This document shows, one piece after another, positions 3,891 through 39,096 of a DNA stretch of 44,707 nt. The position numbers and the translations under genes are program-made. The DNA is from Escherichia phage phiEco273. Under the pieces are notes generated by a model. The model had not been told where the DNA came from. It did not search any database and worked only from the letters and a program-made list of their open reading frames with translations. Every line of letters starts with the position of its first letter. The stretch's first letter is position 1. The DNA is taken from the sequence record PP786691.1. One strand, 5' to 3'.

Positions 3891-4105
3891 CGTTCAGTCC
3901 TCATGTTGGTGTGCAACCAATATAGCAGGGTGCTGGGGCGGGCGCAACCAATATTAATCACGCGTATGAAAAGTTGATCGCTATCTGCTGAAACTGCAAA
4001 CTGCATTTTTCACCCACCATTCTGCAACTCGCATTGGTTGCCTAGTTCATCGACGACCGCAATTTACATCATGTTGCCGTGCATTATGCAATCCAGGATT
4101 TTATG

Positions 4106-4290
4106 CAGTCTCAGACGAGGGGGGTGCCAGACCCCCCGTCTAGTCTGAAAGACTGGGGTGCTGTCCCGCTGTCCCGCTCCTCGCCAGGCCGCGTCATCCG
4201 GGGCGGGACAAGGGTGCTGTCCCGCTTTGTCCCGCCCCTGGTCTGTCCCGCTTTTTGTCCCGCTTAGTTTATGCAGTTTTATTGCATAAC
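4106..4290. repeat. Repeat element copy 1: imperfect GC hairpin (GACGAGGGGGG...CCCCCCGTC) followed by 6 direct and 1 inverted copy of GTCCCGC and TTATGCA(G/A)T motifs
   Basis: Direct reading; about 85 percent identical over ~185 bp to 32399-32585 in the same orientation. Confidence 0.8.
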
Positions 4291-4369
4291 TATTCACTAT
4301 ATTTACACTACACGGCAACCAATACGACCGCCTAAAAGCACGCAAAATGGCAACCAATGCGCGCAAAAT

Positions 4370-4600
4370 TTAATCTTTTAAATCGTCATCGGTCGCTGAA
4401 AGCGTGATGGGGATATCCGATTTGATGACCAAATTAGACGACCCATAGATGGCCCCGGTGTGCGGATCGGTATAGAAACCTATCACTCCGCGCTCCACCA
4501 TATCGTCGATTGCCTTCGTCGAAGTGCCACCTTTTGCCAGCCCAGCCTGGCGGACAATTGCCGATTTACTGAATCCAGTATGGTCCGGGTTGTCTTCCAT
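4370..4600 (-). CDS. hypothetical protein (76 aa from internal ATG overlapping primase stop)
   Basis: ORF 4370..4627; ATG at 4600 overlaps upstream stop by one base, suggesting translational coupling. Confidence 0.4.
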   Translation of the reverse strand: MEDNPDHTGFSKSAIVRQAGLAKGGTSTKAIDDMVERGVIGFYTDPHTGAIYGSSNLVIKSDIPITLSATDDDLKD

Positions 4601-6633
4601 CAGTTTTTCCAGTGCCGCATAAAGCACTTTCTCTTTTCGTTGCGCGGTCCGGCGGTGTTCTCTTCCTTAACCGCGGCCTTGCCTGCCGCCTTCGCCTGTT
4701 CAATAGCGAACGGTGCCAGGGCAACCGGTACGAGGTAGAGAGTCTCGTCGCGTGGCGTGGAGGCAATTGGCTTGACGTCCCATCCGGCAACCACGTCGCC
4801 GAAGTCTGGCCCGGTGCTGGTGGACTGGTGCGCCTCGAACGCTTCTGACTTGCGGAGATCTACCTTAACCTTGCACTTGAGCAGGACGAAGCCACGCGGC
4901 GCTTGCTTGATGCCGTTACGTGACTTCTCATGATACAGGTTCAATTGTCCGGGCTGGTTGTCGTCCGGCTGTTCCAGGAAGAACGCAGAATCGACAGCAC
5001 CATGCAGCGCGCCGGACCCGCGTGGCGTTCTGCTGCCGTTTGCACCTTTAGCCGGGTGGTGGATGACTCCCGCACTACCACCTGTATTTTCCGCGATGGC
5101 CTTCAGCGCTTTGACCACTTCACCCATATCGCTGGCGTTGTTCTCGTCGAACGGTTTAGCATCCGCGGACCGCAACGCAACAGTCTGGTTTAGTGAGTCG
5201 AACGCCACCAGGCCAACCGGTTCGCCGTTAGCGGTGCGGTTGATAAAGCTGATAACTTCGCGCAAGCCTGATTTGCTGGTGATATCCCAGCCGCGTGACT
5301 GCAGGTCTATAATGTGCAGCTTGTCCAGGTCGTGCTCATATTTAATCTGCAATGCTTCTTTACGCTGGTTGGAGGCTTCGCCACCTTCCGCATCGAAATA
5401 GAAGCAATGAGACTGGACGACCTTCGCACCGCCAAACGGAATACCGGCGGCAACCGCTCCCATCTGGCCCAGCACATAGAAAGACTTACCGATATTCGAC
5501 TCGCCAGCCATGTACCAGGTCGATTTAAAGTTAATCAACCCCTCGATAATCGGGTCGTGCTTACTGAACAGCGCAACCGGCTCGTTATCCAGATCCGCAT
5601 CGGTGCACACGCCGTATTCTTCGCCGTCGCCAACCGCATCAACGATATGTTCATAGCACGATTCCACTTCTTCGTCGTCCAGCCCCGGAAGGATGGCGGC
5701 GATTTGCTTACGGGACATATTGTGTGGCTCGACGTTCAGGTGATCCGGGATCCCGATAAGACGTAGCGCCAGGTGCTGGTGTCTGTTCAGTTCCGAGCAA
5801 CACTCGTTACCGGTGTGCATACACTTGAAACGGATCTCGCCATCCTTGACCATGATAGCCGTCGACCCTTCGCCGCTGTGCAGATGTTCGTTCGGGCACG
5901 GCACTTCATAACCGCGACCGGAAGATAACTCCTCGAATCCTGCCTGGAAGCACCAGTCCAGAATACCGTCTGCCACTGCGTCGTCACCCTGGGTAAGCTC
6001 GCGGCGTACTTCCTCTTTTTCCACCCCCAGCTTGTCAGCCAGGCGGAGCAGACGACGGACGCGGGCGCGCTTGCCATAGTGGCACTTAATAACAGACTGC
6101 TGGTGTGGCAGGTACATCAGGCGGTTTGTGTCTTTCGTGCAATCGTCGAAGTCCACATCTGACAGACCCAGTTGGTGTAATAGTGCATACTGGACGCGGC
6201 CCAGGTCTTCAGCCGGTACAGGCTTGTCAGTGAGTACCAGGAATCGAGCGCAACGCGTGCCGCCTTTCAGTGGGTGACGGTCGCCGGTTGTGGTGTGAAA
6301 TACGTGTTCCAGCCCCGCGTCAATGAACGCCTTACGGCAGCGGCGTAGGGTGCGGGTGTCGGTACGGTCAATATCGAAGAACAGGATCGAGCGGTCCACC
6401 GCACTGGTCTTACGACGCAATCCGTCACTGGTATACGCCACGATGCCGTCGGCCTTACGCTTGCGGCGCGCATACTCGGCTTTATCTTCCGTCTTGTTGA
6501 TATGCACCGAGGAGATTTCTTTCGCATCTTTGATAAATTCGAAAAATTCATCGGTGGTCATCTGGAAGTTTTCCGCCCTGGCTTTTTCGCCTTTTTTAGC
6601 GGGTCTTGTAACAGCGAATTTAATTAAGCTCAT
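4600..6633 (-). CDS. DNA primase/helicase (N-terminal primase-polymerase-like domain, C-terminal RecA/DnaB-like P-loop NTPase)
   Basis: 677 aa; Walker A GESNIGKS in C-terminal half; N-terminal region with acidic FFDIDRTD motif resembling prim-pol domains; AAGG RBS. Confidence 0.7.
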   Translation of the reverse strand: MSLIKFAVTRPAKKGEKARAENFQMTTDEFFEFIKDAKEISSVHINKTEDKAEYARRKRKADGIVAYTSDGLRRKTSAVDRSILFFDIDRTDTRTLRRCRKAFIDAGLEHVFHTTTGDRHPLKGGTRCARFLVLTDKPVPAEDLGRVQYALLHQLGLSDVDFDDCTKDTNRLMYLPHQQSVIKCHYGKRARVRRLLRLADKLGVEKEEVRRELTQGDDAVADGILDWCFQAGFEELSSGRGYEVPCPNEHLHSGEGSTAIMVKDGEIRFKCMHTGNECCSELNRHQHLALRLIGIPDHLNVEPHNMSRKQIAAILPGLDDEEVESCYEHIVDAVGDGEEYGVCTDADLDNEPVALFSKHDPIIEGLINFKSTWYMAGESNIGKSFYVLGQMGAVAAGIPFGGAKVVQSHCFYFDAEGGEASNQRKEALQIKYEHDLDKLHIIDLQSRGWDITSKSGLREVISFINRTANGEPVGLVAFDSLNQTVALRSADAKPFDENNASDMGEVVKALKAIAENTGGSAGVIHHPAKGANGSRTPRGSGALHGAVDSAFFLEQPDDNQPGQLNLYHEKSRNGIKQAPRGFVLLKCKVKVDLRKSEAFEAHQSTSTGPDFGDVVAGWDVKPIASTPRDETLYLVPVALAPFAIEQAKAAGKAAVKEENTAGPRNEKRKCFMRHWKN

Positions 6634-6643
6634 TGCCGTGGCC

Positions 6644-6973
6644 TTACTTCGAAGTTTTGTTATTGCGTACCCAGGAGCGCACGGTGCTCTGGTTAATCCC
6701 TGTCAACTCCGCGATCATCGCCCATGACTTTCCCTCGGCGCGCAAACGGATAACCTGCTTTTTGTATTCTTCCATTTCCTCATTGTGCTTCTGCAGCTTG
6801 CTCGCCGCCGTGCCGTTCAGCAATTCCAGCCTGGCGCGTAATTCTTTTTCTACACTGCGCAGGCGCTCGACCTCAAACAGCACCGCCCCAACGGCATCGG
6901 TATAAGCCCATGACCGGCTTGTTTCACTGCTAACAGTCTTCGTTAACATTTCGATTGCGTCGTTTACATTCAT
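6644..6973 (-). CDS. HTH DNA-binding protein, candidate transcriptional regulator
   Basis: 109 aa, coiled-coil middle, C-terminal HTH-like segment (KSWAMIAELTGINQSTVRSWV); first gene of leftward operon, directly downstream of a palindromic site. Confidence 0.55.
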   Translation of the reverse strand: MNVNDAIEMLTKTVSSETSRSWAYTDAVGAVLFEVERLRSVEKELRARLELLNGTAASKLQKHNEEMEEYKKQVIRLRAEGKSWAMIAELTGINQSTVRSWVRNNKTSK

Positions 6974-27531: not shown

Positions 27532-28262
27532 TCTGTTATATTCCCCGGTAGGTCTTTATGACGTACCCATTTAACCACATTGTCCCGGAAAAATCCTGAT
27601 CGGAAGGGTATCACGCTCGACAGGCTGCCGTAGATGTGGTGTAGTAGTTGGTTGCCCGGAAGGAATATCCCGGCATGGTTAGGTACTGGCGCGCTGATCT
27701 GCATGATGACCATCGCCCCCGGCGTATTCTCCTCGCATTCCCTGAAGCCCGCACCGTACCAATTGTCCATATACAGGTTTTCGCCTGTCTCCCACCAGTT
27801 ATACGGCACGCGGAAGTCTGGCAGGTTTACCCCCTGCTTTTTGTGCCAGTCCATGACGAGGCCGTAACAATCCGTAATTCCGAGAACAAATCGGCGGCCC
27901 ACCAGCGGCGGGTCTTCCGGGTCGATCTCGATAAAGTCGCCATATTCGTTAGTGATGGTCCAGACGACGCCGCTGCCGTTGCATCCGTTAACGTCACCCA
28001 ATGATGGGGTTAACTCGCGCTGACCCGGGTGTGAGTGGACTACGCGAACGACGTCGCCCATATCCTCAGCGTCCATCCAGGCCGTATCACTAATGGTAAA
28101 CGCGTCCTTACGCGAGCGCGCACCGGTAGGGTCTTCGAATACGTTAACGCACGGGATAAAAACTTGTTTGCGACCCACCATGACAACCAGGCCGCAGGCT
28201 TCTTCCGGCAGACATGCCGCGACGTGTGCGGCGATATCGCTTTTAACCTTCTTCGTTAACAT
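27522..28262 (-). CDS. tail assembly protein, lambda K-like (MPN/JAB + NlpC/P60-like domains)
   Basis: 246 aa; HSHP motif region and Cys/His-containing C-terminal domain; synteny. Confidence 0.65.
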   Translation of the reverse strand: MLTKKVKSDIAAHVAACLPEEACGLVVMVGRKQVFIPCVNVFEDPTGARSRKDAFTISDTAWMDAEDMGDVVRVVHSHPGQRELTPSLGDVNGCNGSGVVWTITNEYGDFIEIDPEDPPLVGRRFVLGITDCYGLVMDWHKKQGVNLPDFRVPYNWWETGENLYMDNWYGAGFRECEENTPGAMVIMQISAPVPNHAGIFLPGNQLLHHIYGSLSSVIPFRSGFFRDNVVKWVRHKDLPGNITEWQ

Positions 28263-28264
28263 AA

Positions 28265-29053
28265 CTACCCCTTAATTAATCTGGACCCCGGAAAGCCGCC
28301 GAAGTCCAGCACCGCCGCTTTCGGGTCCGCAAGCCCTTGCCCAAATCGAAGATAACAGTCGGACAAACAGCCGCCGCATCGGTCCATATTCATCGCAATG
28401 ACTTCATTACCTCGCTCGTCGTAATACTTGATGCCGGGTTTCGCAAGGTTCCAGGTGCACCCGTCCCCGCTGGCGTACTTCCCGTTGAGCGCCCATTCGC
28501 ACATATTCATGATTTGGCGACGGGGGACGACCTGCCCTTCCATATCTGCGGGTGAGGATAGCGCGAAGGTGATCTGCTTACCCGGATTTCGGCCCACCTG
28601 GGAGTCGATGTAATACTCCTGAACTCGTTTCTGCGTCGGGTCTGGATCTGTCCCGTTATCCAGGAACTTCGCGAACGTATCTATGATCTCAACCTTCGCG
28701 CCCAGTAGCTGGTCATGGTTCAGCGACAGCCTGGTGATTATTCCGCCAATATCGACGATGGTTAGCTGCGGTTCTGCCGCCGTTGACGTGGAGAAGTTGA
28801 GTCCAGACAGCTCGAAGGGCCAGAATTCGAACTCCTGCCCGCCGAAGAAGATGGATTTTGGCTTCAGCTTATCCTCGTCACCCCCAGCGGCAGCAATATC
28901 CTCGGCAGTGTGCGGAATAAAGCAGTAGTGAAAATAGTGATGCCCCGCTCCGATCGCGCCGTCGCCCGGTTCCACGTCCTGAGCGTCAATGTGAATCAGG
29001 CGAACGCGTCCTGATGGGTCAAAGCGCGTCGCTTCACGATAGAGTTTATTCAT
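28265..29053 (-). CDS. minor tail protein, lambda L-like
   Basis: 262 aa; C-terminal Cys cluster (CEWALNGKYASGDGCTW...CGGCLSDC) as in gpL; synteny. Confidence 0.65.
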   Translation of the reverse strand: MNKLYREATRFDPSGRVRLIHIDAQDVEPGDGAIGAGHHYFHYCFIPHTAEDIAAAGGDEDKLKPKSIFFGGQEFEFWPFELSGLNFSTSTAAEPQLTIVDIGGIITRLSLNHDQLLGAKVEIIDTFAKFLDNGTDPDPTQKRVQEYYIDSQVGRNPGKQITFALSSPADMEGQVVPRRQIMNMCEWALNGKYASGDGCTWNLAKPGIKYYDERGNEVIAMNMDRCGGCLSDCYLRFGQGLADPKAAVLDFGGFPGSRLIKG

Positions 29054-29649
29054 CTTACGAATCCAATAGCAGTCTTAAGGGTGGCGGATACCGTTGCCGT
29101 GTAGTGCCCGTTGTCCGTGTACGACAAGCTCGAACGCTCGACCACGAATAAACCTGTTTCGCCATCCGGTGCTGTGACAATGAACGGTTTTACAAAGTGC
29201 CCGCGAAGGAAGTTGTAAACCAGTTTAGGGTCGCACCATTTGTCAGTAGTCAGTCCGACGAATTGCACGGGGAACTGTTTCGTTTCTGCGTTCGGGCCGT
29301 CCGCGATGTTCTGTCCGTAGCCATTACCGAATTGCAATTCCTCAGACCGGAAAGCTAACTGCACGTCGCCACCGCCCTGCAATTGCATGTGCCAGTAATA
29401 GGGCCATTCGTTTGATCGCGGGTCGTGTGCTTCGATTAGCTCATATACCGCACCGGATTTCGTTGGACCTACCCAGTTATCTTTCAGCGTAATGACCGTG
29501 TTCGAGTTGAATGCTGCAATTTTGCCGGTGTAGTCGTTGCCGTCGATGCGGGCGAATACGCGTACCTTCCCGATCTCGCTAAGGAACGCCGTCCCCACGC
29601 CCGTAACGGTCTTACTCCCCTTAGTCAATGTGATTGTACCTTGTGACAT
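29050..29649 (-). CDS. minor tail protein (lambda M position)
   Basis: 199 aa; synteny between tape measure and L-like gene. Confidence 0.5.
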   Translation of the reverse strand: MSQGTITLTKGSKTVTGVGTAFLSEIGKVRVFARIDGNDYTGKIAAFNSNTVITLKDNWVGPTKSGAVYELIEAHDPRSNEWPYYWHMQLQGGGDVQLAFRSEELQFGNGYGQNIADGPNAETKQFPVQFVGLTTDKWCDPKLVYNFLRGHFVKPFIVTAPDGETGLFVVERSSLSYTDNGHYTATVSATLKTAIGFVR

Positions 29650-29685
29650 AAAAAAGCCCCCACGATGGATGTGAGGGCCATTTTA

Positions 29686-32328
29686 TCATCGTTTGTAAAG
29701 TACACCACCTGGTTTAGTCGCTTTCACGATCTCGGACTTCACCGCCTCGGTGATTTGCTTGCCGAACGCCTGCGCGGTACGGGGATCCGGCCCGCTGACA
29801 CTGGTATCCGTTTTACCGGTCCCCGTGTAAACGTTAGTCGTCACGACCATACCACCGCCTGCGCCAGACGCGGCAACGCCCAGTTTCCCGTCCGGCCCGC
29901 GCTTCAGCGGCATGATGGCCTCGGGGCCAGCCTCGCCCATCAATCCTGCGCCCTTAGCGAACGCCTGGACGCCATAACTGAAAAAGGTAGGCTGACTTAC
30001 CACTTTCCCCGAATAGGCCGCGAGATTGCCTCCTGCGTACGCTCCGCCGTCCGCATTCTTAGTTAGGCCAGAGAAGATAGCGCCGAACAATCCGTTTTTG
30101 CCGCCGTCGCCACCGAAAGCGCTAACGATCGACTTGAAAGCCTGCGAGGTAGCCAGCTTGATTAATTCGCTAAGGATGGACTTAACCATATCCTTTGCGT
30201 TCAGCTTGCCAGTCTCGAAAAACTCGTTCATCGTGTCTTGCATAGCGCTGAACGTGAATTTCGTTAGCGTCGCCATCTGCGTATATCCGTTACCCATTTC
30301 ATCCACGCTATCCTTAAGCCCGCGACTGAATCCATCCCATAGCGAGGCGTTAGCGCCGGTCTGCGCCTCCTGCACTTCGCGCAGCTTAGACACCGCCTTG
30401 TCGATATCGGCATCGTTCGCGCCAACCCGCTTCAGGCGGTCAATTAGCTGCAATTCTTCGCGCAGGTTTGCCGCTTCGCGAGTAGAAAGCGCATAACCAG
30501 CGGCGGTAGCTTTTAGTTCGGCGTTCTGGTTCTTAACGAAGGCGTCGATCTGCGCGTGCGCCTTAACCTGCTTCTCTTTCGCATCCAGCAATTTGGCTTC
30601 TTCGACGATCTGCTCGCGGACTTCCTTCACGCGCCCGAACTCGACTAATTGCTGCTTCTCTGCTGCCGTCAGCGCCCTTTCTTTGCTTGCGGCAATTAAC
30701 TGCTCATTGTCGGCGATCAGCTTGTTTAAGGCCGCTTGAGCGCGTTGAGTGCGGGTCTGTGTAGATGCGTTGGCTTCGATCTGCTTGCCGGATTCTCGAA
30801 GCTGGGCCAGTTCACTCCGTGCTACTTCCAGCATTTTCATACCGGCGTCCACGCGAACAGCCGCGGCCTTCTTCGGGGCGGGGTCTTTGTAGCGCTCGTT
30901 GACCTGCTTAACCGCCTCGGCTAGTTCTTTCTCATCAATAACGCCGCGCTTATTCAGCAAATTGAGGCGGGCGATCTCGTCGGCGCGCTTCTTAGCGTTG
31001 GTGGCGTATTCCTTCTCGAACGCGGCGCGGTCACGGGCAGTGCGGTTGGCCTCCTCGTTCGCCTTTGCGGATTCGTCTGCGGCGCGGGCGTTGTCTCGCT
31101 CCGCACGGTTACGCAGGGTGAGCGACGCCACCACTTTTTCCTGGGCGACCAGTTCGCTGTAAAGCATGTTAATACGTGCTTTCTGCGCTTCAGTCATTAC
31201 CCCACCGGCAGCGTTTACCGCTTTCATCTCGGCATAATAAGCCGTGGTCATGCGCTGCAATGACTCACGCGCTTTCATCTCTGACTCATTCGAGGACTGC
31301 GCACGTCCAACATCCAGGATGGCATCCCACATAGATTTAGCTGCCGATGTGACGGTGTTCATCGACCGCTCAAGCGTACCCATGTTGGACTTGATTTCAT
31401 TGGTCATGCTGGTGAACGACGCAGCGGCTGTTTTGTTAGCCAACGCAACTGCGTCTGTCTCACGACCCGCATCAACGAGCGACTGTACCTGCTGGATCTG
31501 CGCTTCGTTTACGACGTGATACTTATCCGCCAGCGCACGCAGTCCGCCTACCGGGTCGGTAGACAGCTTAGCCACCGCCGCGACTACATCCTCGATCGGC
31601 TGGCTGGACACCTTCGCGAAGTCATTCACTACCTTAGCCAATGCGCCGAAGTCACCACCCGCTTTCACACCAGCCGCCGCCAGCGCCTGGATTGTGTCAC
31701 GCGTCTTGCGGAATGATCCGCCCATGCGCTCGGCGTTCTCGGATAGCACCAGGATCTGGTTAGCTGTGAGGCCGGAGATATTGCCGGACAGCGCCAGCGT
31801 CTTATTAAGCGCGGCTACCTGGTTCTCTGCCCGTGACGTAATTGCCACGCCCACGCCTAACGTCGCCGTTACGGCAGCAAGTCCGATCCCTACTGGGCCG
31901 AGGAAGCCCGCAACATAACGCAGCGTGTTACCCAGTCCGCCAAATGCGCCGGTTAGCTGTGGTAGCTGCTGAAGCATGACGCGGTGCACCGGCATACCCA
32001 TCTCAAGCGTAACCGCGATATCCTGTAACTGGAATGCCGCGTTCCGCGATGCGAATCCCAGGTTTTTGGTTGACATGCCTAGTCGGCTGGCGAGTCGCTC
32101 TTGTTTCGTCATGCCGTCGGCGGCACGCTGAGATTCAGTCGCTAACTTTTCCATTCCGCCAGCGGCGTCACCCGTGACCTTTTTCGACTTGCCGAGGGTG
32201 TCGTTTAATTTTTTGACTTTCTGTTCTGTGTTCTCGGATTTCTGCGCAAATGTGTCCAGCACAGTATTAGCCGTTTTAATTTGCGCGACGTCCGCCTTGA
32301 GCGTGATGCCCGCTGCCTGATCTGCCAT
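29686..32328 (-). CDS. tail tape measure protein
   Basis: ORF 29686..32367; probable start ATG 32328 with AAGGGGGG RBS; long Ala/Lys/Glu-rich coiled-coil protein in canonical position. Confidence 0.75.
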   Translation of the reverse strand: MADQAAGITLKADVAQIKTANTVLDTFAQKSENTEQKVKKLNDTLGKSKKVTGDAAGGMEKLATESQRAADGMTKQERLASRLGMSTKNLGFASRNAAFQLQDIAVTLEMGMPVHRVMLQQLPQLTGAFGGLGNTLRYVAGFLGPVGIGLAAVTATLGVGVAITSRAENQVAALNKTLALSGNISGLTANQILVLSENAERMGGSFRKTRDTIQALAAAGVKAGGDFGALAKVVNDFAKVSSQPIEDVVAAVAKLSTDPVGGLRALADKYHVVNEAQIQQVQSLVDAGRETDAVALANKTAAASFTSMTNEIKSNMGTLERSMNTVTSAAKSMWDAILDVGRAQSSNESEMKARESLQRMTTAYYAEMKAVNAAGGVMTEAQKARINMLYSELVAQEKVVASLTLRNRAERDNARAADESAKANEEANRTARDRAAFEKEYATNAKKRADEIARLNLLNKRGVIDEKELAEAVKQVNERYKDPAPKKAAAVRVDAGMKMLEVARSELAQLRESGKQIEANASTQTRTQRAQAALNKLIADNEQLIAASKERALTAAEKQQLVEFGRVKEVREQIVEEAKLLDAKEKQVKAHAQIDAFVKNQNAELKATAAGYALSTREAANLREELQLIDRLKRVGANDADIDKAVSKLREVQEAQTGANASLWDGFSRGLKDSVDEMGNGYTQMATLTKFTFSAMQDTMNEFFETGKLNAKDMVKSILSELIKLATSQAFKSIVSAFGGDGGKNGLFGAIFSGLTKNADGGAYAGGNLAAYSGKVVSQPTFFSYGVQAFAKGAGLMGEAGPEAIMPLKRGPDGKLGVAASGAGGGMVVTTNVYTGTGKTDTSVSGPDPRTAQAFGKQITEAVKSEIVKATKPGGVLYKR

Positions 32329-32398
32329 TATGCAGTCCCCCCTTTTTATGCAGTTGCCGTCGGTCATTGTATCAGCGAATTTAAAACAAACCTTATTC

Positions 32399-32712
32399 AG
32401 TCTCAGACGAGGGGGGCCATTGACCCCCGTCTAGTCTGAAAGACTGGGCTTTGTCCCGCCTGTCCCGATCGGCTAAAACCCGCGGCAGCACTGGCGGGGA
32501 CAGGGGTGCTGTCCCGCTTTGTCCCGCCTCATTCTGTCCCGCTTTTTGTCCCGCTTACTTTATGCAATAAAACTGAATAGACATTCACATTTTGGGGGCG
32601 GGACAGATCGGGACAGCACCCCTGTCCCGCTTTTAATTTATGCAATTGTGGTGAGTAAATATGCAGTTTTAGAGGTGCGGGACAAAACGGGACGTCCCGC
32701 CTGTCCCGCTCC
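32399..32712. repeat. Repeat element copy 2 (GC hairpin + GTCCCGC array, extended by additional direct/inverted heptamers and TTATGCA motifs) filling the GT-chaperone / tape-measure intergenic gap
   Basis: Direct reading; ~15 heptamer copies; first ~185 bp about 85 percent identical to 4106-4290. Confidence 0.8.
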
Positions 32713-32713
32713 G

Positions 32714-33037
32714 TTATGCGGGGTTCTGCCGCGCCATTTCATCCAGCGCAACGCGTTCCATTAGCTTGATATCTTTAAACGCACGTTGCGCGTTTTCGAT
32801 GCCGTGCATATTAAATAACCATTCCAGTACGCCGTAGTCGATGCCGTATGCGCCACCGAATCCGGTACGCCATTGCGTGGCGCAATCCGTGAAGACTGCG
32901 ACTACCTTCGCATTGTCGGGCCATAGTGCAACCGGCGGGCAAACATCTTCGGGGGCCGCACCCCATAAACTTGCGGCTAAATCTTCGGAGGGTGGCGGCG
33001 GGCCATAAAAGCGTCGCGCCGCCTCAATTAGTTTTTT
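32714..33037 (-). CDS. tail assembly chaperone -1 frameshift extension (GT-type fusion product)
   Basis: Slippery heptamer A_AAA_AAC (33037-33031) immediately before the G-like stop; the -1 frame stays open for ~105 codons to TAA at 32716-32714 with no internal start signal. Confidence 0.6.
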   Translation of the reverse strand, partial: KKLIEAARRFYGPPPPSEDLAASLWGAAPEDVCPPVALWPDNAKVVAVFTDCATQWRTGFGGAYGIDYGVLEWLFNMHGIENAQRAFKDIKLMERVALDEMARQNPA

Positions 33038-33390
33038 TCACGCAGCCCCATCAGTTCGAGATAGTACGACGTGTGGAACACGCCGAACGCGCGCGGGTAG
33101 TTGACCACCAGGCGGCGGACGTTCTCCGCGTTAAATTCGTCCGGCAGATTCCAGCCTTCAGCGACGTGCATTATGGCCTCGACCATAACGTTAAAGCCGT
33201 CAGGGTCATTGTCGTCATACTCCGACAACTTGCGCTCAGTATCCTGCATGGTCTGCGAAAATTCGTCGATCGGGCGGTGGCGCACGGTAAACGTCATTTT
33301 CCCCGGTTCGTTTTCACCGGGGCGCGGGATCTCAATCGGCAGCTTAAAGGTCGGCTTAGGGTCAAGTGTGAAGAGTGGTGCTTTTGCCAT
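33028..33390 (-). CDS. tail assembly chaperone (lambda G-like)
   Basis: ATG 33390 with GGAGA RBS; acidic ~120-aa protein between major tail and tape measure genes. Confidence 0.6.
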   Translation of the reverse strand: MAKAPLFTLDPKPTFKLPIEIPRPGENEPGKMTFTVRHRPIDEFSQTMQDTERKLSEYDDNDPDGFNVMVEAIMHVAEGWNLPDEFNAENVRRLVVNYPRAFGVFHTSYYLELMGLREKN

Positions 33391-33405
33391 TGTAGTATTC
33401 TCCAA

Positions 33406-33430
33406 TAAAAAAGGGGCCGTACTGGCCCCA
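33406..33430 (-). terminator. intrinsic terminator after major tail protein gene (GGGGCCAGTACGGCCCC + TTTTTT on minus strand)
   Basis: Strong hairpin followed by T6 on the coding strand. Confidence 0.65.
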
Positions 33431-33459
33431 TATTAACACCCGCTATTTAAGCGACCAAA

Positions 33460-34185
33460 TTACGACAGCGCTTCAACCAGGTCCTTACGGTAAATAACCA
33501 TATCGGATTGCATGGTCAGAGTGGACTCCACCGTCTCCACGTTGTTTACTTCAGCCGATGGAATCTTCTGGAAAGACACCTTAGCCGGGTAAATGCGGAT
33601 CTCACCTTTGCCGCTTGCCGCTGCCGGGTTGGTGAACTTAATCACAGTGGTTTTCTGTGTGTCGTCCAGGTCTTCCAGAATCGGGCGGATCGGGTCTTCT
33701 TCGTCGTGGGTGAAAGTGTAGGTCTGGACCAACGGGTTTTTCGTGGTGTTCAGACTGATCGCGGTATTCACCTGCAACGGCTGGAAGGTGGTGGTCTGCT
33801 GGTCGCCACCCGACACGGCAACGTTAGTGATATACGGGAAGTCGATAAAATTCGACACTTTCACCACTTCGCCTGGGGTTCCCGCCCCAAAAGCACCGGC
33901 AGGATATTTGGTGACGTCTTGAGTATCGAAGCGCGCCAGTGTAACGTCGTTAGTCGCCACTTTACCCACGATGAACGCGCGGTTCAGCGCACGGACCCAC
34001 GGGGCTTTAGTGAACATAACCACGTCGCCAACTTTCAAGCCATGAGAAGCCGCGCAGGTGATAACGCACCCTTTCGTAAGATCAGAGATCGACGCGGCGG
34101 CGTTGGTAGCTGCCGTAACAGCGATACCGTTGCCCAGTACGGACCCAATCTGGACGCTAGACCCGTTAGGAAGTTGATAACCCAT
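33460..34185 (-). CDS. major tail protein
   Basis: 241 aa; AGGAG RBS; followed by strong terminator and chaperone/tape measure genes. Confidence 0.65.
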   Translation of the reverse strand: MGYQLPNGSSVQIGSVLGNGIAVTAATNAAASISDLTKGCVITCAASHGLKVGDVVMFTKAPWVRALNRAFIVGKVATNDVTLARFDTQDVTKYPAGAFGAGTPGEVVKVSNFIDFPYITNVAVSGGDQQTTTFQPLQVNTAISLNTTKNPLVQTYTFTHDEEDPIRPILEDLDDTQKTTVIKFTNPAAASGKGEIRIYPAKVSFQKIPSAEVNNVETVESTLTMQSDMVIYRKDLVEALS

Positions 34186-34246
34186 AATGAACGCTCCTGT
34201 TTAGATATACGGTTCAATGATACAGCACGCGCAGAATAGCGCCAAA

Positions 34247-34669
34247 TCAGGCGCAACATGTGTAGGGGACTGTAACCACGATGCGTGCGCGGTCTACATC
34301 CTCAATCACGGAACTGGTGTATGGCGCGTCCTGAAGCTGGAACGCTGCGCCAGCGATCTTGACTGCCTGCCACTTATCCGACGTGGCGATGGAGTCCGCC
34401 AGTTCGCTCGCGTACTGTGTCCCCGTGCCCGCGGGAAACACTACTGCAACCTGATAAACGCCTGCATAGATCCGGCCTTTCTGCTGAAAGCCAACAAACT
34501 GGGTCGGGGCCGGTAGCAAGTACGGCTCCAGGTATACACCATTGCCGTTAGCGTGGTCGCCGCTCACGTTCTCCCAGTTAACCTGGATCGGACGCTGGCT
34601 AGTGCTCAGGCTAACCGCTAATTCTTCAACCACGCGGTTAAGCGCCTTGCGGATTAGAGTATTGCTCAT
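34247..34669 (-). CDS. tail terminator / tail completion protein (lambda U position)
   Basis: 140 aa; synteny. Confidence 0.45.
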   Translation of the reverse strand: MSNTLIRKALNRVVEELAVSLSTSQRPIQVNWENVSGDHANGNGVYLEPYLLPAPTQFVGFQQKGRIYAGVYQVAVVFPAGTGTQYASELADSIATSDKWQAVKIAGAAFQLQDAPYTSSVIEDVDRARIVVTVPYTCCA

Positions 34670-35262
34670 TATTTCACCTTAGAATTAATTTCAGCCGCTA
34701 CGACGCGAACAATCCCCGCGGGCGCTTGTTTACTCCAGCCATACTCAAGTCGCTGCGCATACGGCACATTGTTAGTAAACCAGATAGACCCGTATTCACC
34801 GGAATCGTAATGCGCCAGCACTTCACGCCCCGCGGCTAATGTTGCCGTTCCGGACTTGTCCACGCGGTCAATAGCGCCGACAGCCGGGCGGTCGAACGTA
34901 ACCTGCCAGTTCCCCCGGAAGCGTCCGCCGGTGTAATTCTTCGCAGCCCAGCCACGTTGGCGGAACGTGACGTTGCCGTTTTTAGTTTTAAATGAGATGA
35001 GCACACTGGCGTGCTTCTTCTGCCCGCGCTTCAGTTTGCCGCCATTCTTGCGGCGCTGTGCGGCGTTCACCTTGTTCGCGTGCTGGCGGGCCATCGCATA
35101 AGCCTTGTTAATCTTCCACCGGCGAGGGTCGCCCACCGGGGAGATCTCAATAAGGCGTCCGAGTATTTGCATACCGTACGCCCGCACCGCCTTATCGTTG
35201 TTCTCCTTCGTCTTATCCACCCATGTTGCAATGGTGGCAGCGAATGAGTAGACCTCAGCCAC
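34669..35262 (-). CDS. neck / tail completion protein (lambda Z or HK97 gp10 position)
   Basis: 197 aa; synteny. Confidence 0.45.
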   Translation of the reverse strand: MAEVYSFAATIATWVDKTKENNDKAVRAYGMQILGRLIEISPVGDPRRWKINKAYAMARQHANKVNAAQRRKNGGKLKRGQKKHASVLISFKTKNGNVTFRQRGWAAKNYTGGRFRGNWQVTFDRPAVGAIDRVDKSGTATLAAGREVLAHYDSGEYGSIWFTNNVPYAQRLEYGWSKQAPAGIVRVVAAEINSKVK

Positions 35263-35263
35263 G

Positions 35264-35617
35264 TTAGCCCCTTAGCTGTAATTGAAACAGCATGGTAATG
35301 CCCGCCGGTTGCAGGGGGTTGGGGTTGATAACCCGGTAGTCTGTATTGTTCAGGCTAACCAAATCTCCGACCTTTACTTCCTTGACGGCCTGGCATAAAA
35401 ACTTCACATCCCCGGCAACGATACGCGTACCGTCGATCTCGCTCGGCTTGTACTCCTCGCGAAGCCCGATGACGTCAAACGAGGTCGCAGGGATGACCAC
35501 TTCGTCGCCGTCTACGCGGTCAACCGACCCAGGACGCGTAACCGTAACGGTCATGCCGAACTTTTTAATCAGCGGATTGACTTTCCGCTTTAATCCCGTG
35601 TAATTAAAGCCCGCCAT
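35264..35617 (-). CDS. head-tail joining protein
   Basis: ORF 35264..35623; second ATG (35617) has AGGAGG at correct spacing. Confidence 0.45.
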   Translation of the reverse strand: MAGFNYTGLKRKVNPLIKKFGMTVTVTRPGSVDRVDGDEVVIPATSFDVIGLREEYKPSEIDGTRIVAGDVKFLCQAVKEVKVGDLVSLNNTDYRVINPNPLQPAGITMLFQLQLRG

Positions 35618-35721
35618 TTTCATCCTCCTGTACCGGTGGTTCCGGTTCTGGCGCTGGTTCCTGTTCCGGTTGGCGTTTAGTATTTGCGGCGATAATAGCC
35701 GCCAGTAATGCAGGATTCATA

Positions 35722-36222
35722 TCACCCCCGGAATACGTCAAAATTACCCGCTGCGTTGCCGTCTACATTCACCCAGTAGCCCAGCAAGCCATCCCACCAC
35801 GGGAAAGACACACCGCTACCAATCGTCGCGGCGTCATACTCCATCGTGATCGGGCCTACCGTTTCACGGATAGTCTCCTTTCCATCGCTGACCGGAGAAA
35901 TATCAACATCGTCCGCCACCAACATTGCCAGCCGGTAAACTGCTTGCTCAACGGCAACAGGGATTGATGCGAAGTCTACAATCTGCCCCGCCGGAACTAC
36001 TGTCAAATCTTCAGTAAGCGTGTTTTGCACCGGCTTACCGTCTGACGGGTAGTTGACGCGGGGCCATGCGTCAATTCCGGTCGGGTCCGCTTGTTCGCCG
36101 ATCCAGTCGATGCCGTTAAGGAAGTCATTAACAATGGTAAGGTGTCGCGTTGCGTCGCTCTGCGTAATTTCAACGCCTCGCGCCGCGGCATAAACAACAA
36201 ATGTTTGCGGGTCGCCATACAT
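35722..36222 (-). CDS. head-tail connector / head completion protein
   Basis: ATG 36222 with GGAG RBS (track ORF 35722..36408 has an Arg-rich spurious extension over the capsid gene terminator). Confidence 0.5.
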   Translation of the reverse strand: MYGDPQTFVVYAAARGVEITQSDATRHLTIVNDFLNGIDWIGEQADPTGIDAWPRVNYPSDGKPVQNTLTEDLTVVPAGQIVDFASIPVAVEQAVYRLAMLVADDVDISPVSDGKETIRETVGPITMEYDAATIGSGVSFPWWDGLLGYWVNVDGNAAGNFDVFRG

Positions 36223-36233
36223 TAGATTCACTC

Positions 36234-36262
36234 CTATAAAAAAGGCGGGCTTATGCCCGCCC
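36234..36262 (-). terminator. intrinsic terminator after major capsid gene (GGCGGGC-ATAA-GCCCGCC + TTTTTT on minus strand)
   Basis: Direct reading. Confidence 0.6.
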
Positions 36263-36280
36263 ATTTGGGATGTGCGTAGA

Positions 36281-37312
36281 TCAGGACGCTTTGGTCGGGG
36301 TAAGCGTAACCAGTACGCCTGCCGTTTCCTTGATGTGACGGGTCGGCACTTCCTGCGCGGCCTGGGTCTTACGACGGCCTTTAGTATCGCCATCACCAAC
36401 AGCGCCAACGTCCTGCACGGTTGCAGGGGCGTTGTCTACCTGGCCCTGGTCCAGTTCCCAGTTAGCGGAAGTGGTGATGTCGGACAGTTTGAACGAGCGA
36501 ACACCTTCGACCGGAGTACGTGCGGACGCCTTCAGACGATAGCCTTTAACCGCCACGTTGAAGTCGAACTCGCCCTGCCACCAACGTTCGATGTTCTCGT
36601 TACCGCCTTTCTCCTGCGCCAGCATATCAAGACCGTTGGTAGTAACTGCAACCGCGCCAGGGACCAGACCAAGCATGTTACCCGTGCCCATAGCATCGGC
36701 AGCGGCATCGGAGATAATGAAGCGACGGCCCAGGCCATCACCCATTACCTGGAGATCGCCAATTGCGAATACCTGTTCTGCGGAAGGGAGTGCCTGGTAC
36801 GCAATGAAGTTTGCCCAGGTGACGCCGTCCATAAACCAGGACTTAATCAAAGACGCCTGATCGCCGAACTTAGAAGCCGCCAGCGGGAAGTCTGCCAGGG
36901 TCGGGAAGGTACGACCGCCAACGCCGTCAACGCGCGCCGGTTGGGTGTATTTTGCCGCTGCGTTGCTCTCGATCGCCGCTTTACTTGCGCCGATACCCGC
37001 CTTCAGGTAATGCAGCATAATAGCTTGAGTAGCCTGTGCCGCAATCTCAGCCGCAACGCTGTTAACGTTGGTTTCGATCTTAGCCATCATGGCCTTAGTG
37101 ATTGCTACCGGACCCACTTTCGCCGACAGGTTAACGGAGTTGGTCAGCATACGCGCCAGCACTTTTGCGGTCGCCGGAGTACCGACAGGGGCATAGGCGT
37201 TACGGTCGGTAACGAGGTTGGCGATCAAGCCTACGGACATTTTTTCTACAACGTCCTTCAGCACTTCACCCGTACCGAGAACAACAGCGCCGTTAGCGGC
37301 GGCGTTGAACAC
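36281..37312 (-). CDS. major capsid protein (main ORF; likely true start at ATG 37382 in another frame, see findings)
   Basis: 343-aa ORF from GTG without RBS; ATG with AAAGGA RBS at 37382 opens a 20-codon ORF in a different frame; composition and position typical of a major capsid protein. Confidence 0.7.
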   Translation of the reverse strand: MFNAAANGAVVLGTGEVLKDVVEKMSVGLIANLVTDRNAYAPVGTPATAKVLARMLTNSVNLSAKVGPVAITKAMMAKIETNVNSVAAEIAAQATQAIMLHYLKAGIGASKAAIESNAAAKYTQPARVDGVGGRTFPTLADFPLAASKFGDQASLIKSWFMDGVTWANFIAYQALPSAEQVFAIGDLQVMGDGLGRRFIISDAAADAMGTGNMLGLVPGAVAVTTNGLDMLAQEKGGNENIERWWQGEFDFNVAVKGYRLKASARTPVEGVRSFKLSDITTSANWELDQGQVDNAPATVQDVGAVGDGDTKGRRKTQAAQEVPTRHIKETAGVLVTLTPTKAS

Positions 37313-37479
37313 GTTCAGGTTATCGGGGATTATTTTGCGTAACCGCGGTAACGAGTTTACGCTGGAACACTGTTAAAGACATATCTAAATCCTTTGAGTT
37401 GTGAGCATACGCCCAGTACCGTTAATGTTACCCTAGATTTACGCGCTCGCAAAATTGCCCGCTTTCGCGGGCAATTTGC

Positions 37480-39094: not shown

Positions 39095-39096
39095 CG

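Follow-up and report, generated by a model that had tools for sequence, protein, structure and literature searches.

Genomic context of the two repeat regions

The window analyzed here is the whole 44,707-nucleotide sequence of Escherichia phage phiEco273 (PP786691.1), a Dhillonvirus, that is, a virulent siphovirus with headful packaging whose host is E. coli. On its minus strand, the ORF for tail chaperone G (33028-33405) matched Pfam Phage_TAC_4, and the T frame, which overlaps G, terminates at the stop codon 32714-32716. Translation of the tape-measure gene most likely begins from the ATG at 32328, which follows the ribosome-binding site AAAGGGGGGA; the gene would then be 2643 nt long, as in relatives. 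The ORF maps thus leave a non-coding gap of 384 bp between the two genes (region A, hereafter copy 2), in agreement with the approximately 385 bp given in an earlier note on this DNA. Such a gap is indeed unusual, as the chaperone ORF of Hafnia phage TS33 overlaps the tape-measure gene. The note had framed the locus as lambda-like; this framing was abandoned, since the phage is a virulent Dhillonvirus with a T7-like set of replication genes (helicase-primase, PolA, and gp2.5-like SSB).

A related region (region B, hereafter copy 1) lies on the 3' side of the helicase-primase gene, 106 bp past its stop codon. The two copies are on the leftward-transcribed strand in window coordinates, 28.3 kb apart or 16.4 kb apart the other way round the circularized genome, and no further copies of the element were found elsewhere in the window. 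The observation reported in the note, namely a second hairpin and heptamer array before the tape-measure gene, is confirmed, and its interpretation is partly supported, as described below. The features of both regions and the genes of candidate reader proteins are listed in Table 1.

Table 1. Features of the two repeat regions and of candidate reader genes in the phiEco273 window
Feature	Position	Strand	Basis
Copy 1 (region B), from the helicase-primase stop (4370) to the first small downstream gene	4007..4369	-	ORF map, alignment; SO-1 'region B'
GCAACCAA sites flanking copy 1	4034, 4315, 4350		Motif scan
Copy 1 palindrome	4106-4155	-	Alignment
Copy 1 heptamers (n = 7)	4163-4263	-	Motif scan
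Copy 1 AT-rich block, most AT-rich 40-mer of the window	4264-4303		A+T ranking
Helicase-primase gene, AAA_25 helicase core	4370..6633	-	Pfam, PHROGs ('replicative helicase-primase')
Last 85 aa of helicase-primase, predicted winged helix, candidate iteron reader	4370-4627	-	AlphaFold, Foldseek
109-aa HTH protein (HTH_23 / Sigma70_r4_2-like), first gene of the helicase-primase operon, alternative candidate reader	6644..6973	-	Domain searches
Two TGCATAA (32328-32334, 32346-32352) on both sides of the G-rich ribosome-binding site, with overlap of the tape-measure start codon	32328..32352	-	Motif scan, alignment
Copy 2 (region A), whole non-coding region from the G/T chaperone stop to the tape-measure start	32330..32713	-	ORF maps, sequence; homologous to SO-1 'region A'
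Extended -10-like element TGATACAAT, ~37 nt upstream of the tape-measure ATG	32366..32374	-	Alignment of 9 genomes
49-nt imperfect palindrome/extended hairpin; transcribed strand CAGTCTTTCAGACTAGACGGGGG-loop-CCCCCCTCGTCTGAGACTG	32398..32446	-	Alignments, folding
Core iteron array, CGGGAC(A) on the transcribed strand; starts 32453, 32462, 32511, 32521, 32536, 32548	32453..32554	-	Motif scan, alignment
Degenerate inverted heptamer in the core array, making palindrome GGGGACAGGGGTGCTGTCCCGC	32496		Motif scan
AT-rich block 1, 75% A+T over 40 bp, TGCATAA at 32560-32566; candidate DNA-unwinding element	32555..32595	.	A+T ranking
Second iteron cluster, inverted heptamers 32599(-), 32609(-), 32624(+), palindrome CGGGACAGCACCCCTGTCCCG	32597..32630	.	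Inverted-repeat and motif scans
AT-rich block 2, 75% A+T, TGCATAA at 32638-32644 and TGCATA at 32660	32631..32672	.	Motif and A+T scans
Third iteron cluster, adjoining the chaperone stop; 32678(-), 32688(-), 32694(+), 32703(+); perfect palindrome CGGGACGTCCCG	32677..32709	.	Motif scan

Heptamers and AT-rich blocks

The heptamer GTCCCGC occurred 20 times in the window, compared with 9.2 +/- 3.0 in shuffles, and 17 of the 20 were located inside the two regions. Its hexamer GTCCCG was found in copy 2 as 13 exact sites in both orientations between 32453 and 32708, against an expectation of 0.105 per 384 bp (Poisson P ~3e-23), together with one degenerate site. The earlier figure of about 15 heptamers was close. 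Clusters of the kind seen in iteron-type origins were present in both regions, copy 1 containing seven heptamers. Every core heptamer was invariant among 15 aligned A and B copies, and the spacing was irregular (approximately 9-15 bp) and lacked helical phasing. In the record of phage PTXU06, the second cluster of copy 2 carries the label of a putative terminator, and in that of phage jat it is a repeat_region.

Copy 2 contains three iteron clusters, each adjoining an AT-rich block; these blocks are among the 40-mers with the highest A+T content in the window. The AT-rich elements of both regions (40-bp blocks at 32555, 32632, and 4264) had A+T contents of 75-78%, and at most 0.02% of the 40-bp windows in the whole stretch exceeded the best block of each region. 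The motif TGCATAA/TTATGCA was found 15 times in the window (5.3 +/- 2.0 expected), eight of the sites being within the two regions or at their margins. Reading TTATGCA as a DnaA box was dropped, as only seven of nine positions match. GC and AT skew at 1-kb resolution tracked gene orientation, with no inflection at either copy; this and the irregular heptamer spacing count against an origin function.

Relationship and concerted evolution of the two copies

When 32393-32590 was aligned globally with 4101-4300, 167 of 206 columns (81%) were identical, in the same orientation. The earlier estimate of about 85% over about 185 bp was right as to co-orientation and essential likeness and slightly generous as to identity. 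In relatives, blastn gave 83-88% over approximately 175-195 nt. The length of the core is 173-175 nt in all A and B copies. Derived states are common to A and B of one genome, pointing to concerted evolution: in Ioannina and LM40P1, both copies share the palindrome type, a G deletion, and a TCC bulge, and in JL1 the loop sequence is common to A and B. Judging from these alignments, A and B appear to behave as equivalent targets of one trans factor.

Conservation among Dhillonviruses and related phages

Both copies were present at the same two positions in all 158 Dhillonvirus genomes in GenBank. The orthologous loci of Sodalis phage SO-1 (NC_013600 / GQ502199) are annotated as repeat_region, namely 'region A' (11214-11597, between gp16 and the tape-measure gene) and 'region B' (40178-40657, after the helicase-primase gene). 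The record's note on region A, which is available as far as the words 'possible ...', mentions direct, inverted, and palindromic repeats and similarity to region B. No description of the two regions was found in the literature on Dhillonvirus, SO-1, eiAU, or the heptamer as an iteron.

In Eiauvirus eiAU, which belongs to a distinct genus and has a helicase-primase 43-44% identical to that of Dhillonvirus, both gaps are present and contain different GC-rich repeats; CGCCCCG repeats and a similar bulged hairpin precede the tape-measure gene. In the L047 clade (helicase-primase 49% identical), a TTGCGAGT module follows the helicase-primase gene and recurs after a Mu-F-like head gene. These sequence comparisons show that the arrangement in two sites is old and that the second site can lie at different positions.

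The conservation bears on the earlier idea that a small mobile, MITE-like, or homing-associated element was inserted twice. The two co-oriented copies are alike, and TGCATAA(A) stands on either side of the 175-nt core, both of which would suit such an element. However, TGCATAA also recurs inside the regions and is conserved in eiAU, and is therefore a functional motif rather than a target-site duplication. In addition, the comparison of the chaperone/tape-measure junction across relatives that the note had called for revealed the insert in 158 of 158 Dhillonvirus genomes and a gap also in Eiauvirus, with no presence/absence polymorphism and no further copies within the genome. No match to either copy was detected in 5,426 E. 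coli genomes or in 72,556 plasmids, indicating that the repeats are not a mobile element. A mobile origin is thus effectively refuted.

Heptamer arrays beside replication genes of other phages

A scan of IMG/VR for three closely spaced TGTCCCG heptamers yielded at least 120 stretches, and 116 of those listed were outside Dhillonvirus. Among the matches listed, 46 non-Dhillonvirus array loci carried an AAA_25 helicase(-primase) homologue, and in 39 of these 46 the array started within 150 bp of the 3' end of the AAA_25 gene, which is also where copy 1 is placed in phiEco273. Most heptamers of the arrays beside AAA_25 genes read CGGGACA on the coding strand of the gene. Representative helicase-primases were 750-760 aa in length, with AAA_25 positioned as in phiEco273. 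Other arrays adjoined Toprim+DnaB_C or DUF5906 replication genes, and one contig contained two CGGGACA arrays separated by 11.5 kb. The gene that comes next after the array was co-oriented in 27 of the 33 loci with a called neighbour and convergent in six, according to crude ORF calls. This orientation does not separate an origin from a promoter.

Palindrome and RNA-level function

The hairpin proposed in the note was recovered: the segment 32398-32446 folds at -13 to -15 kcal/mol as DNA (z approximately -4 against shuffles). In the alignments, the palindrome has an invariant stem, a freely variable loop, and a TC bulge in the 3' arm. Its 17-mer core was found in IMG/VR in Dhillonvirus genomes only, usually twice per genome, apart from one chance match in a coding sequence.

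Several functions at the RNA level had been suggested for the leftward transcript. With the hairpin and inverted heptamers folded in the mRNA, a processing site, an attenuator or terminator separating strongly from weakly expressed tail genes, a put-like antiterminator, or translational control through the ribosome-binding site of the tape-measure gene could be envisaged. For 32320-32720, the predicted fold of the transcribed strand is much more stable than those of shuffles (-169.5 vs -127 kcal/mol, z -6.5), base pairing is conceivable between the C-run of the hairpin and the G-rich ribosome-binding site before the tape-measure gene, and ARNOLD-predicted terminators are annotated at this place in PTXU06. 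Nevertheless, the fold signal was equal on both strands because its source is the DNA palindromes. RNAalifold predicted the hairpin from 15 copies with a covariation term of -0.04, only the loop-closing pair being variable; covariation is absent because the stems are invariant, and RNA, single-stranded DNA, and double-stranded DNA palindrome readings are therefore not separable by this method. A search of both copies against Rfam at a permissive threshold returned no family near threshold, only meaningless miRNA-type hairpin matches far under the gathering scores. The main hairpin has no U-tract and is followed by TGAGACTGAATAAGG. A scan of 32000-33100 for intrinsic terminators detected no minus-strand site in the gap, where the only terminator-like site (32609-32629) is on the antisense strand. 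Moreover, the second copy occupies different transcript contexts across clades, and heptamer arrays also adjoin replication genes of unrelated phages. The put-like, processing, and antitermination ideas are accordingly unsupported, and we regard an RNA-level role of any kind as improbable.

Promoter elements and transcription of the late region

The main rival to an origin is a regulated late promoter. A phage regulator, such as the HTH protein, would bind the CGGGAC arrays and activate a promoter just downstream, so that the late operon (small genes, lysis, terminase, head, and tail tube) would be transcribed from copy 1 and copy 2, as an internal promoter, would boost the tape-measure and tail-tip genes. 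The palindrome would serve as operator or would block read-through from upstream. Copy 1 is indeed located at the boundary between the early HTH/helicase-primase genes and a co-oriented string of late genes of approximately 33 kb, and in each of three lineages (Dhillonvirus, eiAU, and the L047 clade) the two copies run in the direction of transcription. Before the tape-measure gene, GCTGATACAAT (TGnTAnnnT) was unchanged in nine of nine aligned genomes, with adjacent bases varying. Matches to the sigma-70 consensus were depleted in the late region (3 vs 13.8 +/- 3.5 expected), and few promoters must therefore serve it. The second copy of the L047 clade lies upstream of the next head genes, and the usual co-orientation of the gene after the IMG/VR arrays also agrees with a promoter. 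It further counts against an origin that linkage to the 3' end of the helicase-primase gene is equally expected of a promoter or operator for the next operon, and that co-orientation with transcription and the invariant -10-like element fit a transcriptional role equally well.

On the other hand, 13-14 irregularly spaced sites in both orientations over 260 bp would be unusual for an activator, and tail-tip genes require low expression rather than a boost. At the corresponding place in copy 1, a good -10 is not conserved, and scanning this region gave no promoter. Consensus promoter and terminator scans of both regions gave nothing convincing; the TGATACAAT element lacks a -35 and was absent from the promoter scan output. 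The genome also has a separate, abundant promoter-associated motif, GCAACCAA, which is absent from copy 2, and the heptamer arrays track replication genes of three different architectures. We consider a regulated late-promoter module rather unlikely. A sigma-54 promoter noted by eye in copy 1 was dropped, as its -12 element is not conserved in other Dhillonviruses.

DNA packaging

Terminase recognition sites such as lambda cosB, SPP1 pacL/pacR, and P1 pac are arrays of short repeats. The arrays described here resemble them and might be bound by the terminase small subunit as a pac-like site, or might load a nucleoid or roadblock protein unrelated to initiation. For Sponge, welsh, Kente, and Maverick, the start of the GenBank record or a break in it falls within copy 2 or close by, which would agree with packaging. 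However, such record starts are conventions or assembly breaks, and Kente simply lacks approximately 86 nt of the repeat. The genus packages by headful, with no pac site mapped (PMC9022532). The element is approximately 11 kb from the terminase genes, is present in two copies, and is linked elsewhere to helicase-primase rather than terminase genes. The packaging idea of the note draws no support in either direction, and we consider a packaging or other protein-loading site very improbable. The cos sequence ATCTTAAGGG reported for phage EE09 was absent from the window. The idea that copy 1 marks a genome terminus was rejected, as PTXU06 and similar records end 49 nt after it by gene-order convention and not at mapped ends.

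Candidate reader proteins

In phiEco273, a 1-nt deletion splits the helicase-primase into ORFs of 677 and 85 aa. The AlphaFold model of the C-terminal 85 aa comprises H1-H2-H3 plus a wing (pLDDT 80.6), and the best Foldseek matches were MarR-type wHTH, linker histone, and ORC2 winged-helix domains, with E-values of only 0.01-0.1. The protein is therefore predicted to combine a primase-helicase with a C-terminal winged helix, as in P4 alpha. The putative recognition helix differs among lineages with different repeats. A comparison of the helicase-primase with PDB sequences found no relatives.

No homologue of the HTH protein or of the winged-helix domain was detectable in the 116 listed non-Dhillonvirus IMG/VR array loci. 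Likewise, hhalign gave no significant match between the C-terminal domains of the Dhillonvirus helicase-primase and the array-adjoining IMG/VR proteins. This counts against the origin model: with no homology detected between these domains, the same heptamer could be convergent.

Comparison with known replication systems

Bacillus phage SPP1 carries two regions, each with an AT-rich unwinding element: oriL, inside a replication gene, and oriR, in non-coding DNA that breaks up the late genes. Both are bound by gp38, and oriR has been proposed to stall forks and trigger the theta-to-sigma switch (PMC6316719). Like phiEco273, SPP1 is a virulent, headful (pac) siphovirus of approximately 44 kb with two similar direct-repeat regions, each including an AT-rich element. 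The same arrangement was found here, with copy 1 beside a replication gene and copy 2 in a non-coding gap among tail genes, as oriR lies among late genes. The regions are separated by 13 kb on the SPP1 circle and by 16.4 kb in phiEco273. SPP1 uses the dedicated gp38, a loader, a DnaB-type helicase, and host primase and polymerase, whereas phiEco273 encodes a fused helicase-primase and its own PolA. In addition, oriR is located among head genes and copy 2 in the chaperone/tape-measure gap, and the SPP1 repeats are unrelated in sequence to the heptamers. We know of no SPP1 counterpart of the 49-nt palindrome.

In satellite phage P4, one multidomain protein, alpha, combines primase, helicase, and a C-terminal winged-helix origin-binding domain and binds short iterons in both orientations. 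These iterons form two separated cis sites (ori and crr) flanking or neighbouring the alpha gene. For P4 alpha, Yeo et al. 2002 and Ziegelin & Lanka 1995 appear in the reference list of PMC4234260. The helicase-primase of phiEco273 is similarly multidomain, with a predicted winged helix at its C-terminus and two candidate cis sites. P4 alpha has a Toprim-type primase and an SF3 helicase, whereas the core here is RecA-like AAA_25; Pfam reported AAA_25 only, with neither Toprim or D5_N plus SF3 nor a D5/P4 helicase domain. The P4 sites are 4.5 kb apart, compared with 16 or 28 kb here, and the iteron sequences are unrelated. By this comparison, the helicase-primase resembles P4 alpha at most in its working and is not a member of its family.

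Archaeal plasmid pRN1 has a small repressor gene, a winged-helix primase-helicase gene, and then, just downstream, an essential stem-loop proposed as the origin; the stem-loop is relocatable, and the authors noted similar layouts in some phages (PMC4234260). The pRN1 order (orf56 / orf904 / stem-loop) equals that of phiEco273, with a small DNA-binding regulator, a primase-helicase, and a stem-loop on the 3' side. The pRN1 stem-loop is approximately 100 nt long, is kept in structure rather than sequence, lacks flanking heptamer arrays, and occurs in a single copy with a prim-pol plus SF3 helicase, whereas the palindrome here is 49 nt long, has arrays, and occurs twice.

The RepA helicase of RSF1010 (IncQ) belongs to the RecA-like family covered by AAA_25. 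RSF1010 oriV combines iterons, an AT-rich segment, and hairpin priming signals of approximately 40 nt that are recognized by the plasmid primase (PMC8567376), and to this extent it is like the modules described here. RSF1010 uses three separate proteins for binding, unwinding, and priming, in contrast to the single fused helicase-primase proposed here, and its ssiA and ssiB are inverted on opposite strands in one origin, whereas the palindromes of phiEco273 are co-oriented and 28 kb apart.

Proposed function of the second copy

Copy 1 directly follows the helicase-primase gene, and copy 2 is therefore most likely a second origin-type site. Our best explanation, to which we give about an even chance of being correct, is that the two regions are paralogous iteron modules of replication-origin type that co-evolve and bind an initiator, with copy 2 as the second site, comparable to SPP1 oriR or P4 crr. 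It draws on the anatomy and conservation of the modules, the concerted evolution of A and B, the association of heptamer arrays with helicase-primase genes across phages, and the predicted winged-helix fold. Among the alternatives raised earlier, a second origin acting at the DNA level is thus the one favoured by the evidence.

We infer that a phage initiator binds the CGGGAC(A) arrays at both loci. The likeliest initiator would be the helicase-primase, acting through its C-terminal winged helix, and the alternative would be the small HTH protein encoded just upstream. Binding beside the AT-rich blocks of approximately 40 bp may lead to strand opening, and the invariant 49-nt palindrome may extrude or be exposed as a hairpin that serves as a loading or priming site for the helicase-primase. 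Copy 1 would be the primary origin, and copy 2 could serve as another origin, could enhance initiation in cis, or could be bound by the initiator so as to stall forks and aid the switch to concatemers. Transcription of the tail genes is probably restarted or strengthened by a putative sigma-70 extended -10 element on the tape-measure side of the palindrome, which may also activate the site transcriptionally.

A broader proposal, tentative and on balance doubtful, is that CGGGACA arrays directly 3' of helicase-primase genes constitute a widespread, undescribed class of phage origin, present in more than 100 IMG/VR contigs and all Dhillonviruses. The helicase-primase would load itself via its C-terminal winged helix, and Dhillonvirus, Eiauvirus, and related clades would possess an obligatory two-site system. 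In these phages, gene conversion would keep the distal copy among the late genes identical to the first, and this copy would govern initiation or the concatemer switch and couple it to late transcription.

Implications

Dhillonviruses are among the most often isolated E. coli phages and serve in the BASEL collection, in screens of defence systems, and in work on phage therapy. For engineering of these phages, the 384-bp 'spacer' before the tape-measure gene should not be taken as a neutral insertion site. If the model is right, the origin or origins of a large phage group would be identified, together with a testable candidate initiator-DNA pair consisting of the winged helix and the heptamer. 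It would also provide a second natural case of an SPP1-style origin plus a distal origin inside late genes, and the signature of heptamer arrays 3' of AAA_25 helicase-primase genes would predict origins in many uncultured phages.

Genomic context and structure of the repeat regions

The window region was 99% identical to Escherichia phage vB_EcoS_Sponge and matched 158 GenBank phage records, nearly all of them from Dhillonvirus, a genus of virulent siphoviruses of ~44-45 kb with headful packaging (PMC9022532). The lambda-like setting assumed in the earlier note was thus not borne out, as this is a virulent headful siphovirus and not a lambda-like temperate phage. A gene map derived from Sponge, SSL-2009a, and SO-1 contained two divergent arms. 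The first encodes PolA, a gp2.5-like SSB, an exonuclease, and an SNF2 helicase, and the second, leftward in window coordinates, opens with a 109-aa HTH protein and a helicase-primase and continues on a single strand through small genes, lysis, terminase, head, and tail genes up to the tail fibre. Additionally, in-frame tandem repeats encoding acidic/basic low-complexity stretches were found in two early-protein ORFs (90 nt x2 at 7499-7678 in ORF 7376-7894; 54 nt x3 at 10702-10869 in ORF 10117-10920).

The frameshifted T extension of tail chaperone G ended at 32714-32716, and the most probable start codon of the tape-measure gene is the ATG at 32328, which is preceded by AAAGGGGGGA and gives a gene of 2643 nt, equal to that of relatives. 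Therefore, 32330-32713 is a non-coding gap of 384 bp (copy 2, region A). The hexamer GTCCCG occurred 13 times in this gap, in both orientations (expected 0.1; P ~3e-23), and 17 of the 20 GTCCCGC heptamers in the window (9.2 +/- 3.0 in shuffles) were located in copy 2 and in copy 1 (region B), the non-coding stretch 3' of the helicase-primase gene. TGCATAA was threefold enriched in the window, with 8 of 15 copies inside the two regions or at their edges, and the AT-rich 40-mers adjoining the arrays were at the extreme of the window's AT ranking, the copy 1 block being tied for the most AT-rich 40-mer. Positions 32393-32590 aligned with 4101-4300 in the same orientation at 81% identity. These results confirm that a second copy of the repeat array and hairpin occupies the chaperone/tape-measure gap, as the earlier note had described with slightly generous but fair numbers. 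A 49-nt imperfect palindrome (32398-32446) had a folding z of ~ -4; an RNA-level role, which had also been proposed, is a minor alternative and gained no support: neither an Rfam match nor covariation was found, and a U-tract is lacking.

Features of the window and of related phages, with the elements of copy 2 in minus-strand order
Feature	Position	Strand	Content
109-aa HTH protein	6644-6973	minus	Head of leftward arm
Helicase-primase	4370-6633	minus	Second gene of leftward arm
Tail chaperone G	33028-33405	minus	Phage_TAC_4
Copy 2, 1			Chaperone stop codon
Copy 2, 2	32709-32677	minus	Iteron cluster 3, with perfect palindrome CGGGACGTCCCG
Copy 2, 3		minus	AT-rich block 2, with TGCATA and TGCATAA
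Copy 2, 4	32630-32597	minus	Iteron cluster 2, palindrome CGGGACAG-N5-CTGTCCCG
Copy 2, 5		minus	AT-rich block 1, with TGCATAA
Copy 2, 6		minus	174-nt core common to copies 1 and 2: four direct CGGGACA heptamers; palindromic heptamer pair; 25-nt copy-specific spacer; two further heptamers; palindrome CAGTCTTTCAGACTAGACGGGGG-loop-CCCCCCTCGTCTGAGACTG
Copy 2, 7		minus	AT-rich DNA, invariant GCTGATACAAT at its end
Copy 2, 8		minus	ACGGCAAC
Copy 2, 9		minus	TGCATAA, RBS GGGGGG, second TGCATAA, tape-measure ATG
GCAACCAA(T) sites	3380, 3913, 3944, 4034, 4315, 4350, 7162, 10058, 10074, 13692, 16634, 16651, 18306, 18318, 22216, 22330, 27648, 38285, 38299		
Gaps in eiAU (L049)	42121-43015 plus 1-221; 26895-27792		
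Modules in L047	12302-12856; 22090-22301		TTGCGAGT repeats

Conservation and concerted evolution

Both copies were present in all 158 Dhillonvirus records found, including the insert at the chaperone/tape-measure junction, which the earlier note had proposed to check in relatives. They correspond to repeat_region 'region A' and 'region B' in the Sodalis phage SO-1 record, whose annotation reads in part 'direct, inverted and palindromic repeat sequences ... possible ...'; our literature search found no paper discussing them. When nine genomes, with overall identities as low as ~75%, were aligned, all heptamers and both palindrome arms were invariant and the hairpin loop and spacers were variable, with a core length of 173-175 nt in 19/19 A and B copies. 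The two regions also showed concerted evolution: Ioannina and LM40P1 carried a derived palindrome GCGGGACGTCCCGCC, a one-base deletion, and a TCC bulge in both A and B, JL1 had an identical loop in A and B, and loop variants were swapped between A and B in other genomes. Two targets that share one trans-acting factor behave in this way, as do copies under ongoing gene conversion; a recent double insertion does not. A search of 5,426 complete E. coli genomes and 72,556 plasmids found no match to the element. Taken together with the presence of both copies in every record, these results refute the suggestion of a mobile element that inserted twice.

Copy 2 was 99% identical to that of Sponge and copy 1 only ~87% (window 4007-4369 versus Sponge 28900-29302), and Sponge, Gluttony, and Kente had a 54-bp insertion at copy 1 that adds one more GCAACCAA-type site; mosaic exchange at or near these regions is therefore indicated by the sequences. 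The public assemblies of Kente (OX460974), which lacks ~86 nt of copy 2, and Maverick (LR990702) were broken inside copy 2, whose repeats and palindrome appear to disturb assembly or sequencing. Such breaks could be wrongly taken for genome termini. A packaging-related site, a minor alternative for the module, gained no positive support.

Two-site modules in other lineages

Relatives outside the genus were traced by the helicase-primase protein. The sister clade of L046 and L017 (69% identity) had the same CGGGAC array and palindrome 3' of this gene. Eiauvirus eiAU (43-44%) had large non-coding gaps at both positions, with another GC-rich repeat, CGCCCCG, many GCAACCAAC sites, and a closely similar bulged hairpin (GAGACGGGGGTG...CACCCCTCGTC) immediately ahead of the tape-measure gene. 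Its gaps, 1.1 kb before the tape-measure gene (with reverse-strand ORF P858_54 inside) and 0.9 kb after the helicase-primase gene, also have in common a ~50-bp segment at 88% identity, and its GenBank record is linearised within the GCAACCAAC repeats. The L047 clade (49%) had a repeat module with a GC-rich hairpin 3' of the helicase-primase gene. The second copy in this clade, clearly homologous and in the same orientation, was located 3' of a Mu-F-like head-morphogenesis gene, approximately where SPP1 has oriR, instead of at the tape-measure gene. GTTGGCAGC repeats followed the helicase-primase gene in the L048 clade (46%), and the chaperone/tape-measure gap was absent in Hafnia phage TS33. 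The position of the first site is therefore tied to the helicase-primase gene; a further site at some place among the late genes recurs in several lineages, and the repeat sequence changes together with the lineage.

Scanning IMG/VR for three closely spaced TGTCCCG copies identified at least 120 stretches, at least 116 of them outside Dhillonvirus, and the heptamer is thus not private to this genus. Among the matches listed (loci L052 and L054-L168), the arrays held 3-24 copies each and were widespread in unrelated, mostly GC-rich viral contigs, in one of which two arrays were separated by 11.5 kb. We searched the ORFs of these loci by local jackhmmer with the Dhillonvirus protein and a 752-aa protein of one such locus. 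An AAA_25 helicase(-primase) homologue was found in at least 46 array loci, and the array started within 150 bp of its 3' end in 39 of 46, again among the matches listed; four further arrays overlapped the called 3' end, and the heptamers mostly read CGGGACA on the coding strand of the gene. This is the layout of copy 1, and its frequency is far beyond chance, because a 300-bp target by one gene makes up a few per cent of a ~9-kb locus. The AAA_25 proteins were only ~26% identical to the Dhillonvirus protein, in the helicase core only, with the same size and domain position. Other arrays listed adjoined a Toprim+DnaB_C or DUF5906 gene.

Promoter-like signals and candidate heptamer readers

The main rival, a regulated late promoter, is consistent with the position of copy 1 at the early/late boundary, the co-orientation of both copies with transcription in three lineages, the paucity of sigma-70-like sites in the late region, and an invariant extended -10-like TGATACAAT in copy 2, ~37 nt ahead of the tape-measure ATG. 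We nevertheless consider it unlikely as the role of the module. A promoter alone leaves unexplained the grouping of 13 sites into three clusters, the AT-rich blocks, the palindrome, and the linkage of the heptamer to replication genes that differ in architecture. One part of region A is probably a promoter. Promoters are common in origins, and the oriR of SPP1 is 'bracketed between transcriptional signals' (PMC6316719).

Sigma-70 consensus matches were strongly depleted at 20001-40000, the late structural region (3 versus 13.8 +/- 3.5 in shuffles), with no depletion in 1-20 kb (17 versus 14.4). The octamer GCAACCAA(T) occurred 19 times in the window (2.3 +/- 1.6 expected), mostly in intergenic DNA or by gene boundaries, often in pairs spaced by 12-17 bp that directly adjoin -10-like hexamers. 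One copy was within TTGACT-17-TAATAT (7149-7177), one pair formed a palindrome (18306-18325), and five copies surrounded copy 1, with zero in copy 2. The motif was conserved in eiAU, concentrated in both its gaps, and probably serves a conserved factor as an early or middle promoter/operator motif.

The 754-aa helicase-primase of relatives is split here into a 677-aa ORF and an 85-aa ORF by a 1-nt deletion in an A5 run near ~4627 (CGAAAAAGAG to CGAAAAGAG), either a sequencing/assembly error or a real variant that detaches the DNA-binding domain. The last 85 aa were predicted to form a winged helix (pLDDT 80.6), and the best structural matches of the model were all winged-helix DNA-binding domains (MarR family, linker histone, and ORC2), at weak E-values of 0.01-0.1. 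Its putative recognition helix was conserved in Dhillonvirus and the heptamer-sharing sister clade and differed in eiAU, L047, and L048; the upstream HTH protein followed the same pattern, with a family switch from HTH_23 to HTH_3. Neither had detectable homologues in the IMG/VR array loci among the matches listed, and both therefore stay candidate readers only.

An iteron-type origin as the best explanation

We give an even chance to the explanation that the module is an iteron-type origin. The array would provide initiator sites, the AT-rich block an unwinding element, and the hairpin-forming palindrome a signal for loading or priming; the adjoining gene encodes a helicase-primase with its own predicted DNA-binding domain. 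Copy 2 would be a second such site, with an SPP1- or P4-like role. We infer these and all other functions of the regions from sequence. P4, with its ori and crr sites and an alpha primase-helicase that carries a winged helix, is a precedent for a two-site module. The known system that comes nearest is that of SPP1, which equals this phage in size and is also a virulent pac siphovirus, with oriL within a replication gene and oriR, 13 kb away on the circle, in a non-coding gap breaking the late genes (PMC6316719). Both contain repeats and an AT-rich unwinding element and are bound by gp38, whose proposed role at oriR is to stall forks and bring about the theta-to-sigma switch (PMC6316719). In pRN1, a further precedent, an essential stem-loop origin comes directly downstream of a small repressor gene and a primase-helicase gene (PMC4234260).

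The existence of the two regions is already known from one GenBank annotation. In the searchable literature we found no description of their conservation throughout the genus, their concerted evolution, the occurrence of two sites in other genera, the winged helix predicted for the helicase-primase or, most importantly, the broad linkage between CGGGACA arrays and helicase-primase genes, and all of these appear to be new.
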